Source of the DNA: Elusimicrobiota bacterium
Lineage (GTDB): Bacteria; Elusimicrobiota; Elusimicrobia; UBA1565
Direction: 5' to 3'
Assembly (NCBI GenBank): GCA_043827405.1
Contig: JBDRPD010000101.1
Span: forward strand, 1-31,430
DNA length: 31,430 nucleotides
In this document: positions 6,001 through 24,000 of the stretch, piece after piece
How the letters are laid out: each line of letters starts with the position of its first letter
Position numbering within the stretch: position 1 is the stretch's first letter
Program-made: the position numbers

Positions 6001-9000
6001 AGGGCGGCGCTTTGCCGCACATTGTCCTGGTTCTGGCCGACGCGATTGGCTTTGTGCAGAATGAGGTTGTCGAGGCTCTGCACGCCCAAAGTGACATGGT
6101 TGACGCCGAGCGAGCGCATGCACTCCAGCTTCTCGGGCGTCAACGTGGCGGGGGAGGCCTCCATGTAGATTTCGGCGTCCCGCTCCAAACGGAAGCTGTC
6201 GCGGATCAGCTGAAACAGCTCCCGCAGCAGGTCCGACGGCATTAACGACGGCGTCCCCCCGCCCAGATAGATGGAGTGGAAATCGACCTCGGCGAAGACA
6301 TCGCGCAGGGCTTCCATTTCGCGCTTGAGCATCAGGTTGTAGCGGCGGAACTCGCCGCGGCTGCTGGTCAGGCACATGGCGCAGAAGCAGAAGGCGCAGC
6401 GGCTGAGACAAAACGGCCAGTGGATGTAGAGGCCGATCTCCCGCGGGGCTTTCCCCTGCCGGATCAGGCGGACCGTTTTTCGCCAGTAGCCGCGCACGTC
6501 CTCCAGGCCGGCGGGATGGAAGTAGCTGCGGTCCAGGTAGGCGCCCCCGTCGGTGGGGTAGTACGCCTCGTGCTCCTCGTGGCAGACCGCGGTCAGGAAG
6601 CTGTACTTGCGCAGCTCCTCCGCGGATATCGCGCGCGCCGCCCCTTTACGACGGGGCGGCGTGCTCGCCGACGCTCCGCTTACGGCTCCGCGCGCCGCCG
6701 TTACCACCAGGCCTCCGCTTCGACGCCGATATTCGTAAACGGGCTGATTTCGACCCAGCGCCGCGAGCGCTTGCCGGTGCCTTCTTTGCCGCGGCGTCCG
6801 CCTTGGCCGACGATGCGCTCGCGCGGGATGAAGCCCGATCGCAGAAGCTGCTGCGCGACTTTTTCCAGCATGTCCGAGGGACGGCCCTGCCGCCGGCGCA
6901 AAAATTTATCGAAGTCCGCCCATAGCTTCGGGGTCTCCCGGATATAGCAGTAGGCTACGAACAGCCAGCTGGAACGCATCATGTCCTCGGCGCTGAACGA
7001 GTAGGAGCTGGCGACCAGCCCTTCGGCATCGGTCTTGATTTTGAACTCCGCGACGCGGTCGGCCAGCGGCGCGTTGGGCAGCATGACGAGATCGAACAGG
7101 GTAAAGTTTACGTCCGGGACGAACCGCAGCGCCCAGTCGAGCGAGCGCTTGAAGGACTCATAGCTGTCGCCGGGCAGGCCGAGGATGAACTCGAGGTCCA
7201 GCCGAATGTTCTTGAACCGGGCGATCTTGGCGATATTCTCTTCGCAGCGCGCGATATCGAAAGGCCGGTTGATGTTTTTGAGGGCTTCTTCACCGGTCGT
7301 CTGGATGCCGACCGCCACCGTGGCGCACGGGACTTTGCCCAGCTCCGCGATCAGCTCATCGTCGAAGTGCTCGGCTTTGAGCTCCATCAAAAAACGGTTC
7401 TCGTATTGCTGCAGTATCCGGAACACCTCTTGGCAGCGTTTCTTCTTGATGTTGAGAAAGGGGTCGGTGATGTAGATGACGCCGGCGAACTTCTCGCGGC
7501 GCAGCGTCTCCAGCTCGGCCCGCAGCCGCTGCAGGGAGAATTTCCGCATGCTGCGCCGGCCCGCATGGTAGTCGCAGTAGGAGCAGGACAGCGGGCAGCC
7601 GCGTGAGGACTCGACGCAGATCATGCCGCGGTCGCTGTTGCCGTGGACTTTGAGCGCGCCGGTCAGATAGGGCGAGGGGATGTCCTCCAGGTTGTCCGGG
7701 CCGCGCGACGGCGGCGCAACCACCACGCGTCCGTTCTCGCGATAGGCCAGACCCTCTATTCCCGTCAGCTCCCGTTGGGCCGCGAAGGCCAGCAGCAGCC
7801 GGCGAAAAGGCTCTTCCCCCTCGCCGCAGACGCAGATGTCCACCGCGGGGTTGCTGCGGAAAAACTCCTTGAGCAAAACGTCCTTGCGGGGAATCTCGGG
7901 GCCGCCCACCACGATCCGGACCTCGGGCATATCCTTCTTGAGCAGCTCGATGAGCCCGAGGGTGCGCGGGGCGTTCCACAGAAAGATGCTGAACGCCGCG
8001 ACGTCCGGCCGGCTTTCGCGCAGCGCGGCCAGCGCTTCCTGATCGGTCACCGCGTCGTGGAACTTGAGGTTGATCATCTCCGTGCCGCGGCGGATGCCGG
8101 GGTCCTGCTGGGCGTAGGCGCGCACGGTGGCCAGCCCCAGGGGCAGGTCCGCTCCCGTGCGGATATCGACGTAGCGGTCTTTCTCCGGTCCCAGGAGCTC
8201 GGTCCAGAATGTTTCGAGGTAGACGAAGGATACTCTCACTTATCCTCGGCGGCGGTGAATTCGGGACGCGCCTCGCGGTTAAGGCGCGCGAATTCCTGGC
8301 GCATCTCGGTCTCGTCCTCCTCCTCCTCGTCGCTGTCGCCTTTGACCAGCTGCAGCCGCCGCTTATGGTGCAGGGCGTTGGCCATGCGGCCCGCGAAATT
8401 GAGAAATCCTTCAAAGCCCAGATAGGGCTCATCGACCAGGGCGTGGTGGAAGTAGGACGGGAAGCCGAGCTCCACGATGCAGAACTTCTCTATCGTATGC
8501 CAGCGGAAGATGCGCGAAACGTCGTTGGTCGTGGTGACGACGAGTTCCGTCGGATCGCCCAGGAAGCGGTTGACGTCCGGGTGGTAGATGTCGGGCTCGA
8601 AGAGGATGGTGTCGGCCATGCCGGTCGCCCTTTCGCTGACCGGGCGGTCGCGTGAGGTCAGAAAGCAGTCGCGTACCGTCATCCCCAGGTCCTCACAGGT
8701 TTCCATGAAGCCTTCCATGTGGTAGGGGTCGCCGATAAACGTCGCTTCCTTGTGCAGGAAGATGTAGGGCGCGATCCACTCCAGGCGGCTCAGGATGCGC
8801 CGCCGCTCTTCAGTGATCAGCTTCTTGGCGGCTTTTTCGCGGCCGGTGGCTGCGGCGAGCTGCCGGATCCAGCGCTCGGTGGCCTGCAGGCCGAACGGCA
8901 GGTCGCAGACCACCAGCTGGGCTCCCGTCTTCTTCGCCAGTTCTGCGGCGGCCTCGCGGCCATGGGGAAAGGAGAGTATGGTGCCGGCCGTCTGCACCCC

Positions 9001-21000: not shown

Positions 21001-24000
21001 GACCGTCGACCAAGAGCTGGCTGAGCTTGAGGGTTTCGCCCTCAAGACGCACGCGTATTGCCGTTTGACGGGGGCGAGCTTGGCGATGCATGCCATTCCG
21101 GACGCCTTCCTTGTGCTGCATGTGGGCGTGGGCTGCAAATATAAGGGCGCGGGACAGTTTACCCTGCACGATCTCGCCCGCGTGGCGCATCACCGGGAAA
21201 ACTATACCGAAGTCAACGACCGCGCCTTGATCCAGGGCTCGGGCGACCGGGTCGGAATCTACGTGCGCAACTTCTACCGCAAGCGCCGGCCGCGGTTTAT
21301 GGCGGTGGCGACGATGACGTTTCTCGAGATGACCGGCGAGGACTTCGGCCGCGCCGTGCGGGACGCGGCCAAGACCGTGCCGTGTCCGGTCGCTTATGTG
21401 CCGACGCCCGGGTTCGAGGGCGACCTGTACGCGGGCTACGCCGCCGTTATTCGCGAGGTGCTCAAGCTCGTGCCGTTTAAGAAGACCAAGCCGGTGCGCG
21501 GGCGGATCGGGATCATCGGCTATCCGTTCGACCGCTACGAGATGGACCATGCCGGCAATCTGCAGCAGCTGCGCCATCTCCTGGAATCGATCGGGCTCGA
21601 GCCGGGCCCGGTGTTTTTGAGCGGACGTCCCATGGCCGAGCTGCTGCGGGCGGGCAGCTGCGAGAAGTTCGTTGTTTTCCCATATATGCGGCCGGGGCTC
21701 GACGAACTCAAAGATCTCGTCGGCGGGCGTCCTCTGATCGCGACCGATATCCCCGTCGGCGTGTCCGGGACCTTTCGCTGGCTGCATGACGTCGGCCGCG
21801 CTTGCGGCGTCGGCCGGGGCGTGCTGGAGAAGGCTTTACGGACGCAGAAGGATTATGCGCGTCCGCAGCTGGATATGTTCCGCAACTACATCGGCCACCG
21901 GATCGGGAGCGCGCGGGCCGCGATATTCGCCGCTACCCCGCTGGCGGCCGGTCTGACGGCGCTGACCTCCGAGCTGGGTATGAACCCCCTGCTGGTCGGG
22001 CTGCGGGACCGGGATCTGGGGGGACGGGCGGCATTTGCCGAGGCGGTCGGCCGGACCGGAGTGCGTCCGCCCGTCGACCTGGATGTCGTGGAGACCCCGA
22101 GCCTGGACCTCACGTGCAGGAAGGTGCAGGCGCTGCGCGATGCGGGCCGGCTGTCGGTCCTGTTTTCATCCTCTGCGGAAAAGAACTGCGTCGCCGCCGG
22201 CGGAGGCTCGCTGCCGCCGCATATCGAGATCGGCTTTCCGTCGCAGTCGTACCATGTGCTGTATCCGGAGCCATTTTACGGTATCGGCGGAAGTCTCGTG
22301 CTGGCTCAACGGATAATGAACTCTGTGCGTTAGCGGGGCCGCGTTATGAATCCGGGATATCATCGATCGACCATGAAACGGAAGGGCTTGGGACTCGCCG
22401 ATCCGCGGGTCTACTGCAAGGGCTGTCCGGTGCTGCAGACCGGATTTTTCGGCGCCCTCAACAGCGAGTCCAAAGCGGCCCTGACCTGCATGATGGAGTA
22501 CGGGCATTATATCCCGCGCCAGATCCTCTACCAGGAGGGAAATCCGGCGACCCGAATTTACGCGGTCAAGACCGGCTATGTGAAGACGTACCGGACGCAT
22601 CCGCTGGGCAAGCACCAGGTGATTCAGATCGCGAAGGGCGGAGATGTTCTGAACCTTGAGAGCGTGCACGGCCGGCAGTGCACCGTTACGGCGGAGGTCC
22701 TGACCAATTCCGAGATATGCTTTCTCGAGGTGCGTCAGCTGATGGAGCGCGCCAAGCGCAGCGGCGCGCTCGCGATGGAGATCATTCAAATCCTGGCGGC
22801 GGCGATCGTGGATTCGCAGCAGCGCATTCTTGATTTCGGCACGCTGGACGCCAAGGCGCGCTTCGCCGGCTTTCTGCTGGATATGCTGCCGGAAGAGGCC
22901 GTCGCCGCGGCGGCGAGCGGCGGCCCGCGGCGCGGCGGGAAGGAGGCGGGTTTTCGCCTGCCTTTGACGCGCCATGAGATCGCGGATTTGATCGGCGTGC
23001 GCCTGGAGACGATTTCCCGGCTGTTCCAGCTGTTCAAGGAAAAGAAGATTATCGCGGCGGATTGCCGGCAGGTGCGGGTGCTGAATGCCGGCAAGCTGGC
23101 CGAATTGGCGAAGTAGCTGTCCGGAGGTTTTATGAATAACGACAGGCAGGAAGAGCGCAGGGAACATGGTGCGGCGGCCGAGCCGGGCGACTGCGGTCAC
23201 CGGTCCGAAAGGCGGCCGGGTCCGGATGGAACCCCGCGGCCGCACTACGACGGCCCCCGCACCACGGAAGAGTACCTGGTGCGCGAATGGCAGGTCGCTT
23301 ACGAGCGCGCCTGCGGCGAGCTTCGCGTCGAGATCCTCAAGGAGAAGCTGCGTAAGACCTGGGGCAAGAGCCTGGAGAAGGTCGCCGGAGAGGTCGACCG
23401 CCTGATGTGGAAGGACTGGGAGCTAAGCCGGAAGGACGGCGATCATTGCGCGGAGCGGGAGGCTCTCGTCAAAGAGCTCGCCAAGAAGATCATGGATTCT
23501 TATGCGCAGGGTCCGCGCCGTTAGGCGCCCCGGCGCCGGCATAGGGAGGAGCATGAAGTCCGCGACAACGCTGGAAGCCGCCGTTAACTCCAAGATCATC
23601 CCTCCGGGCAGCCGCATCTACTGCAGCGGCAACGCGGCGACGCCGCAGAAGCTGCTGGGCCGGCTGGCCGGCGACGAGTCCATCCGCGATGTCGATTTGT
23701 ACTGCGTCCTGCCGCTCGGCGAGCAGGATGTCATGCGGAAGGTATTCGGGGATGCGGCTTGCTCGCGCATCAACTACCGCATTATCTTCAACAGCGGCTT
23801 CACGCGTGAGGCCGTCAACGCGGGCAAGGCGAAGTATCAGCTGTGGCATCTCTCGCAGACGCCGCGCCAGATCCGGCGCTACGTCAAACCCAATGTTGTC
23901 CTGCTGCAGGTCAGCGGGCCGGACTACGGCGGAAATTACAGCCTCGGGACCACGGTGGAGGCCGTGCTGGCCGCGATCCATACCGCCAAGGAGACCGGAG

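Follow-up and report, generated by a model that had tools for sequence, protein, structure and literature searches.

Whether the two components of nitrogenase-like systems must dissociate for turnover has been asked in a 2026 review (PMC13474568), in which Group VI has no characterised member and gene context has so far been of little help. Here, we describe a contig from an uncultured groundwater bacterium of the Elusimicrobiota (the window; 31,430 nucleotides) in which two genes, F1 and F2, each encode a NifH-like reductase (H) and a NifD-like subunit (D) as a single chain. With only two genes (H-D and K) and a covalent link between the components, this natural version opens the dissociation question to direct test; the tether would set the ratio at one reductase dimer for two sites and could serve as a template for single-chain designs. 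We ask whether the fusions are real, to which class they belong, and what they may reduce.

The fused genes and their surroundings

Table 1. Features of the window (positions count along the contig).
Feature	Coordinates	Strand	Description
Three tandem radical SAM paralogues	3-3496	-	47-55% identical; last cut by contig start
Two HemN-like radical SAM proteins	3583-6707	-	Profile matches
B12-binding radical SAM protein	6701-8239	-	Pfam
K1, K-like (beta-type) subunit	8236-9639	-	Invariant C36, H48-D49
F1 fusion, 790 aa	9636-12008	-	NifH-like ATPase 15-279, tether, D-like subunit from ~345
Free NifH-like protein, 282 aa	12005-12853	-	51% identical to F1 H domain
K2, K-like (beta-type) subunit	12855-14156	-	Likely start 14156
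D3, unfused D-like subunit	14149-15873	-	Likely start 15873
F2 fusion, 793 aa	15870-18251	-	NifH-like ATPase 3-270, tether, alpha-type NifD-like subunit from ~338
Alpha-type Oxidored_nitro gene	18452-19885	+	Different cysteine set; true start probably downstream of ORF start
TPR protein	19890-20990	+	Pfam
Beta-type Oxidored_nitro gene	20987-22333	+	Partner of 18452-19885
Crp/Fnr-family regulator	22346-23116	+	Candidate regulator of the divergent operons; palindromes found

Both two-part open reading frames listed in a genome-wide survey's note were present at the lengths given there, with the same Pfam domains: Fer4_NifH at 15-279 (E 6e-81) and Oxidored_nitro at 429-738 (E 2e-29) in F1, and at 3-270 and 417-770, respectively, in F2. 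Their identity of 55% over 782 aa was reproduced (434/782); F2 is the sister of F1 in the tree (support, 99/92), and the two are recent paralogues. K1 lies directly after F1; F2 is the first gene of its operon, and no K gene adjoins it. The same note's complete NifH-like ATPase was borne out: 23/23 aligned fusions have an unchanged P-loop, switch motifs, GXGXXG motif (G21-S28), and pair of cluster cysteines (C107 and C143 in the F1 H domain, which also has R110), and these residues align to NifH. The linker, put there at ~140 aa, is shorter: the tether of F1 and F2 is Pro/Ala-rich, variable, and ~60 to 70 residues long (median of 61 aa, 15% Ala, and 14% Pro over 67 fusions), and residues from ~345 onward are a conserved D N-terminus that unfused D proteins share. 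In the predicted structure of F1, the tether has low confidence (pLDDT <50 at 292-326), and its structural alignments to NifE, NifD, and BchN begin at residue 328-347.

An assembly or frameshift artefact was rejected because the loci extracted from 17 other genomes contain 25 fused open reading frames and a contig from a separate study spans 17194-17778 (end of the F2 H domain, tether, and start of D) with 21 substitutions and no gap. The H-D fusion is genuine, each chain having an intact NifH-like ATPase and an alpha-type NifD-like subunit, and it is conserved in relatives, as had been claimed, in two Elusimicrobiota families and in Myxococcota. A pattern scan using F1 alone found no loci.

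The neighbourhood is rich in radical SAM genes, with six at 3-8239 rather than the three counted in the survey. Best matches of the three tandem paralogues were peptide maturases, below threshold, and the closest off-contig paralogues of the two HemN-like proteins lie in an HxS operon on contig C74 of the same genome (43% identity). Two further Oxidored_nitro genes, assigned by the survey to the cluster, are present but lie in a divergently transcribed unit on the other strand. The genome has just three NifH domains, of which the free NifH-like protein is one. D3 carries an N-terminal domain of ~105 aa that was seen only on Group VI D subunits among the sequences searched; considered as a candidate peptide-recognition element, it had no Foldseek match at E 0.001 and no Atlas match, and its model (pLDDT 86) gave a best fold match of Z 5.7, which points to no clear fold.

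Class, cysteines, and known relatives

Phylogeny supports the assignment of F1 and F2 to the Group VI nitrogenase-like systems that the survey had proposed. They group at 100/99 with A2X36_10850, a fused protein encoded in GWA2_69_24, a genome named by Meheust et al. (2020, bioRxiv 10.1101/765248). Thirty Group VI rows split from 7 NifH/group IV references and 10 other fusions, also at 100/99, in a clade anchored on that one named genome. Nitrogenase models scored below cut-off (TIGR01287, 275 versus 394; TIGR01282, 33 versus 654), as did BchL (202 versus 345), BchX (168 versus 331), and CfbC (274 versus 402). NifB (TIGR01290) had 0 matches in a genome that is 97.97% complete. N2 fixation was rejected on the nitrogenase scores, the lack of NifB, and a reduced D/K cysteine set.

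In place of the six P-cluster cysteines, D has two that are invariant and K has one, within the Group VI limit of at most four. The D cysteines (C395 and C471, F1 numbering) were found in 197/198 and 198/198 sequences and K C36 in 115/115; a second K cysteine occurs in 76/115, and a third D position is Cys in 74/198 and Ala in F1 and F2. K keeps other invariant polar residues (H48, D49, R62, R175, and E177). As to the FeMo-co ligands Cys275 and His442, the position that aligns to the MarD ligand lacks cysteine and has no conserved Cys/His, in alignments that stop short of the His442 region. A D:D homodimer as in CfbCD, which would fit (H-D)2 symmetry with 2+2 cysteines, was set aside because K has its own invariant cysteine and a K gene adjoins 25/25 fused genes (22 directly downstream), in loci chosen by their fusion match.

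Group VI NflHDK systems (Meheust et al. 2020; reviewed in PMC13474568) resemble this one in their Elusimicrobiota host, intact NifH motifs, divergent D/K, reduced cysteine set, lack of NifB, several copies, and many radical SAM neighbours, and F1 and F2 are sisters of a protein from GWA2_69_24. In the parts of these sources covered, NflHDK was described with separate H, D, and K genes and a proposed tetrapyrrole substrate, whereas the fusion and the HxS context went unmentioned. The literature covered held no description of an H-D fusion in Group VI; Figure S6 of Meheust et al. lay outside that coverage and may show one, since their named genome encodes a fused protein. Term searches of the available text of PMC9447857, PMC13753814, and PMC11773926 found no mention of an H-D fusion.

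The architecture as such is not new and would not surprise a specialist aware of Dos Santos et al. 2012 (PMC3464626), who reported in one sentence nifH-nifE-like fusions followed by nifN-like genes in Archaea, Firmicutes, and Deltaproteobacteria, gave no data, and omitted them from their tree; they also noted that other nitrogenase-like pairs follow a 2+1 pattern of cysteines. Domain order and the gene order of F1 and K1 (H-D, then K) are the same, but the presumed members (700 to 760 aa; taken to be those fusions, whose sequences were not listed) form a D clade (100) separate from Group VI (99). A single clade of all fused H domains was rejected by a topology test (p 4e-7). An approximately unbiased (AU) test did not reject Group VI plus the other fusions as a joint clade (p 0.57), and that constrained tree was 5.5 log-units better than the quick tree. 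The trees tend to favour an independent origin of the Group VI fusion, though a joint clade is compatible with the AU test.

DPOR (BchLNB) and COR (BchXYZ; Group V) likewise combine an Fe protein with an alpha/beta pair and a plain [4Fe-4S] cluster at the interface, with no FeMo-co; they differ in having three alpha-subunit cysteines rather than two invariant ones and a separate, transiently bound reductase, and F1 and F2 score far below their family cut-offs. CfbCD (Group IV-B), also a reductase with only [4Fe-4S] clusters, is described as a stable complex, independent of nucleotide, in which the two components likewise remain associated rather than docking transiently (PMC13474568); its link is non-covalent and CfbD is a homodimer lacking K, in contrast to the always adjacent K here. 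The survey's view of a tethered reductase as a new variant thus stands for Group VI in the literature covered, but not against the 2012 fusions or the stable CfbCD complex.

A tethered reductase and its possible substrate

F1 and F2 are very probably working single-chain Fe-protein/alpha-subunit fusions of Group VI reductase architecture. The two H domains would share one bridging [4Fe-4S] cluster, so the smallest holo-enzyme would be [(H-D)K]2, in which a single H dimer serves two D:K sites, a tetrameric state taken by analogy from NifDK and BchNB. ATP hydrolysis would power one-electron transfer to a simple [4Fe-4S] cluster between D and K, putatively held by D C395 and C471 and K C36 (2+1 cysteines) plus a fourth ligand, with P-cluster and FeMo-co probably absent and no N2 fixation expected. 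Among several paralogous D/K pairs, the tether may commit each reductase to its own D and let it undock without diffusing off.

A lead to the substrate comes from contig C74, where HxsD (62.7 versus a cut-off of 50), an HxsD-like protein (59.3 versus 41), HxsB (512 versus 370), and HxsA4 (59.5 versus 55) are encoded in a single run on one strand, together with ~11 radical SAM genes and a D/K pair unaccompanied by an H gene. This pair, the genome's other one, shares an operon with HxsD/HxsB and the His-Gly-Ser precursor HxsA4 (102 aa; no peptidoglycan-binding Pfam domain). Several HxsC-like genes fell below cut-off (best HxsC, 97 versus 268; HxsC4, 131 versus 500). Linkage of C74 to the window contig (C101) is drawn from relatives, as the two have no end overlap and there is no HxS gene within the window. 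In relatives, fused H-D/K genes are flanked by orthologues of C74 genes for HxsC-like radical SAM proteins and for an A24-like membrane protein (34, 17, 38, and 17 of 72 loci). A K gene and HxsA4 share a contig at a distance of no more than 22 kb in 14/22 genomes (0.65 expected), where the limit was fixed after the distances were seen and related genomes are not independent; 21 of the 22 have HxsA4 and an HxsB match, and the H-D-K genes are 1 to 8 kb from HxsA4 in five genomes. Co-occurrence at the genome level says little, since HxsB (21/27 and 22/22) and HxsA4 are found in nearly all genomes of both host families; ~26 genomes have HxsA4 without the reductase. The HxS link is weak in Myxococcota, where HxsB is within 10 kb in 2/22 loci and some loci (L120, L124, and L132) have D/K genes with no radical SAM motif near, many of these loci being short.

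From this gene context, we consider it an even call that HxsA4 peptide maturation is the setting of the Group VI reductase. The substrate would be a maturation intermediate that the neighbouring radical SAM enzymes produce from the His-Gly-Ser repeat peptide and that carries a C=C or heteroaromatic unit open to low-potential two-electron reduction. Tentatively, Group VI reductases may tailor a ribosomal peptide (by reduction of radical-SAM-made cross-links or imidazole units on the HxsA4 His-Gly-Ser repeats), with the fused form a self-contained enzyme whose one permanently tethered Fe-protein dimer alternates between two active sites. Complex prediction of F1-D, K1, and HxsA4 scored 0.06 and points neither way. 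The characterised HXS system (HxsABCD; Li et al. 2026, PMC13128918) shares with C74 HxsB, HxsD, and a His-Xaa-Ser repeat precursor; that system, from Pseudomonadota, consists of four genes, acts against phages, has an HxsA that binds peptidoglycan, and needs no reductase ("nitrogenase" and "reductase" have 0 occurrences there), whereas C74 combines a Group VI D/K pair with a 102-aa HxsA4 and >10 radical SAM genes. The HxsA4 link provides a concrete candidate substrate and, if the peptide reading is true, this would be the first nitrogenase-family enzyme to act on a peptide substrate. We place the probability of the whole explanation, tethered enzyme and HxsA4-pathway substrate together, at about 0.48.

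Weighing the alternatives

Strong reductants are required by B12 and radical SAM enzymes, and the tethered reductase might have no organic substrate of its own, acting instead as an ATP-driven low-potential donor to those of its cluster. Radical SAM genes of several classes are its most constant neighbours (one family in 52/84 loci), persist where no HxS gene is seen, and include B12 radical SAM genes adjoining H-D-K in Myxococcota. We nonetheless regard a donor role as rather unlikely: the invariant K residues resemble a catalytic pocket more than a relay, and up to six divergent K paralogues per genome fit several chemical steps better. Reduction of a tetrapyrrole to a new cofactor, as proposed by Meheust et al., with HemN-like and B12 radical SAM proteins decorating the ring, would match the characterised relatives without FeMo-co (DPOR, COR, and CfbCD), the presence of both gene types in the window, a TP_methylase-family gene in 10/84 loci, hemB in this genome, and the position of BchL on the Group VI side of the tree. 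It is made improbable by HxsC-like and HxsB neighbours that match peptide-system models, by the lack of a core tetrapyrrole gene among the recurring neighbours examined, and by hemB, which was not found in 3/4 fused-system genomes of the other family. Some other small molecule could be reduced in a radical-SAM-rich secondary-metabolite hot spot where HxS genes lie by coincidence; near-universal HxS systems in the host families, 20/22 Myxococcota loci with no HxsB nearby, and carbamoyltransferase, U32, and aminotransferase genes recurring in 3 to 5 loci would all suit it. Against such coincidence, which we judge unlikely, many loci have HxsC-like genes and the A24-like gene interspersed, on one strand, with H-D-K genes, which lie close to HxsA4 in the five genomes above.

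Returning to the enzyme itself, the tethered H might instead be a docking or regulatory remnant, with electrons arriving via the free NifH-like protein or free/fused heterodimers. A free H gene directly precedes F1, free H is common in the host family, and mixed dimers, which this genome could form, would again provide each D:K site with an H dimer. A remnant is highly improbable, as all catalytic residues are kept in the fused H and free H is absent from 9/10 genomes tested (two of the nine only 92 to 93% complete); with every NifH domain fused in those nine, the tethered form must work alone. In the tenth genome, H, D, and K are all separate proteins, and its H falls within the fused H domains in the tree (99/94), so that fused and free states are interchangeable; 8 changes of state were counted among 30 rows in one tree and 11 among 59 rows in another.

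The fused genes and their surroundings

The fusion of a NifH-like ATPase (H) to a NifD-like subunit (D), reported for F1 and F2 in the genome-wide survey's note, is real. Our own Pfam search and alignment bore out the domain ranges and the 55% F1/F2 identity given there; the linker (tether) is shorter than the ~140 residues claimed, at 69 residues between profile ends in F1 and 71 in F2. Of the 26 proteins retrieved with F1 residues 280-790 as query, 24 have both Pfam domains. F1 matched at E 1e-30 in 35 of the 301 genomes sampled from the phylum, and regions cut from these 35 held 25 fused ORFs, spread over two families and 17 genomes. 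A contig from an independent study crosses the F2 H-tether-D junction gap-free (a sequencing run holding the whole stretch, which may be the source, is excluded from this evidence).

The minus-strand run reads F2, D3, K2, free H, F1, K1 and six radical SAM genes, to the contig start (D, alpha-type; K, beta-type Oxidored_nitro subunit). The divergent plus strand carries a second alpha/beta pair, a TPR gene and a Crp/Fnr gene. Genome searches found three NifH domains, all within the window, and nine Oxidored_nitro matches, seven in the window and two on C74, another contig of the same genome; NifB had no match in this genome (97.97% complete). The second alpha/beta pair does not belong to the main D clade of Group VI and has 58-59% orthologues in GWA2_69_24; by appearance its cysteine set is 3+1, and it has no H gene of its own.

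The 200 bases separating the divergent operons contain three ATGA-N6-TCA sites, two of them fully palindromic. This pattern, picked post hoc, matched 8 times in the window versus 1.5 in shuffles, with 5 of the 8 between the divergent operons; the sites are candidate, predicted targets of the Crp/Fnr regulator.

Coordinates of the features discussed (window positions unless a contig or locus is named)
Feature	Location	Strand	Remark
F1	9636-12008	-	790 aa
F2	15870-18251	-	793 aa
D3 N-terminal domain	15526-15870	-	~105 aa, alpha/beta
ATGA-N6-TCA sites	18372-18385, 18394-18407, 18452-18464
Second alpha/beta pair	18452-22333	+
Crp/Fnr regulator	22346-23116
Small ORF	23132-23524	+	no Pfam match; resembles next row by eye
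ORF at locus L072	L072:2966-3328		adjoins GWA2_69_24 version of second alpha/beta pair
C74 HxS/D/K run	G000:C74:2611-23925 (L144, L001)		one strand after HxS genes; passes contig end
TP_methylase-family gene (example)	L081:14220-14966
Free Group VI H (genome G088)	L062:9317-10189
Extended K-like proteins	L048:8400-10325, L049:9809-11659

The P-loop, switch I/II and cluster residues have established roles in Fe proteins, and all 23 aligned fusions keep the P-loop, switch I (D51, K53, D55), C107, R110, switch II (D136, D140) and C143. The corresponding NifH cluster cysteines are numbered 97/132 in the relevant passages of PMC13474568 and bioRxiv 10.1101/765248. Structure comparison of the modelled H domain with solved Fe proteins gave Z 37 and rmsd 2.1. 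The C-terminal part of the fusion is alpha-type, with best matches to MarD, NifE and NifD. Because these alignments already begin at residue 328-347, little length is left for the tether. The F1 model has pLDDT <50 at 292-326, and tethers in 67 fusions without an extra N-domain have a median of 61 residues (range, 34-253).

K1 and K2 are beta-type. Among non-identical sequences, two D cysteines are near-invariant (197/198 and 198/198) and one K cysteine is invariant (115/115); a third D cysteine occurs in 74/198 (F1 and F2 have Ala there), and K has a further cysteine in 76/115. Judged from sequence, the D and K cysteines suffice to bind one [4Fe-4S] cluster, leaving its fourth ligand open, and are too few for a P-cluster.

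Among the sequences searched, the D3-type N-terminal domain precedes Group VI D subunits only, and many fusions carry one or two copies of it between H and D (H-N-D, H-N-N-D). The model of the D3 domain was confident, and its fold search gave no clear match.

Placement in Group VI and earlier descriptions

The F1/F2 system is a member of Group VI. In a careful 53-row tree, F1 pairs with F2 as its sister (99/92), and the two cluster with A2X36_10850 (100/99) from GWA2_69_24, a genome that Meheust et al. (bioRxiv 10.1101/765248) name in their section on Group VI. The free H of the window likewise clusters with the free H of that genome. The 53-row tree, built without CfbC and BchX references, splits Group VI from NifH/group IV references and from fusions of 700-760 aa at 100/99 and puts its one BchL on the same side as Group VI. 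The D domains of Group VI and of the other fusions form two separate clades. Uniting Group VI with the other fusions in one clade was not rejected by an AU test (p 0.57), so a separate origin of the Group VI fusion is likely rather than established.

P0116, a 970-aa Group VI H-D fusion, comes from a 9.5-Mb record of Pseudenhygromyxa sp. WMMC2535, which we take to be a cultured strain. At locus L140, a K-like gene of Group VI lies on a contig that bears a Nanoarchaeota label, which may reflect transfer or mis-binning.

The main text of Meheust et al., as accessible (bioRxiv 10.1101/765248), uses "fused" twice, never of nifH, and the accessible text of North and Shafaat (PMC13474568) contains neither "fused" nor "fusion". 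In the portion of Dos Santos et al. (PMC3464626) that treats them, nifH-nifE-like fused ORFs followed by nifN-like genes are mentioned, with data not shown, and were filtered from the tree. In a search mostly outside the subscription literature, neither the Group VI fusion nor a nitrogenase-like enzyme acting on peptides turned up in any paper. The H-D fusion is a variant with one earlier mention, for other clades, and is apparently undescribed in Group VI. Its value is that a minimal tethered enzyme tests the dissociation question; it also offers a specific substrate lead.

Substrate context

For a tetrapyrrole substrate, hemB is present in the studied genome, but a search of four other genomes with the fused system failed to find it in three. 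A neighbor survey that scanned 23 cluster representatives out of 972 called genes gave a TP_methylase-family gene as the sole tetrapyrrole-related recurring neighbor (10/84 loci), standing just after the fused H-D/K genes; no family member occurs in the window or on C74.

For a peptide substrate, the radical SAM genes of the window match peptide maturases weakly, and C74 encodes HxsD, an HxsD-like protein, HxsB and HxsA4 (the His-Gly-Ser repeat precursor) over cut-offs. The same-strand run after these HxS genes comprises ~11 radical SAM genes, a TPR gene, an A24-like membrane gene and a Group VI D/K pair without H, which can draw on the H domains of the window alone, as the genome has no others. 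Beyond their own contig, the HemN-like genes of the window find their closest paralogues on C74 (43%). Relatives of three C74 HxsC-like genes occur at 34, 17 and 38 of the 72 loci found with K, and those of the A24-like gene at 17; they often directly precede the fused gene. HxsA4 occurs in 21 of 22 genomes with Group VI K: in 14 it lies ≤22 kb from K on the same contig, versus 0.65 by chance (limit set post hoc; kin not independent), in 7 on a different contig, and in 1 it is absent. Counting against a peptide link, HxsB lies within 10 kb at only 3/72 K-found loci and only 2/22 Myxococcota loci, and HxS genes are near-universal in both host families. What the reductase would do to the peptide is a guess, drawn from the C=C reduction carried out by DPOR; the relevant part of Li et al. 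(PMC13128918) reports that HxsB/C leave a +C/-4H change on the HxS repeat.

Tethered H and probable subunit stoichiometry

Ten of the 35 F1-matching genomes were searched for every NifH domain. In nine, two of them merely 92-93% complete, all NifH matches lie inside long open frames of 745-1213 aa (fused state mapped in eight, deduced from frame length for G178); in the tenth, H, D and K are all free. Going by these gene contents, the tethered H must work. Fused and free states are intermixed, with 8 changes among 30 rows of one tree and 11 among 59 rows of another.

K adjoins all 25 fusions at loci selected via a fusion match, which argues that D pairs with K. Relatives such as G054, G084 and G212 encode just one H-D+K pair. 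Because the Fe-protein cluster bridges two H chains, a system made up of fusions alone would have a single H dimer for every two D:K units. If D:K formed the usual tetramer, the H dimer would serve one of the two sites at any moment; the alternative would be open chains.

The free Group VI H at locus L062 belongs to a 98% complete genome in which K had no match at E 1e-30. Single-chain Fe-protein dimers, H-H (~585 aa) and H-H-D (~1085 aa), occur among proteins P0027-P0135 and are a different solution to the H count, in other lineages. Both cysteine motifs are kept twice in 22 H-H-D proteins; in most H-H proteins, just one of the two motifs was matched twice (variants may be missed). At loci L048 and L049, whose genomes have free H, the gene order is H-K-D and the K-like protein bears an extra C-terminal partial K-like stretch.
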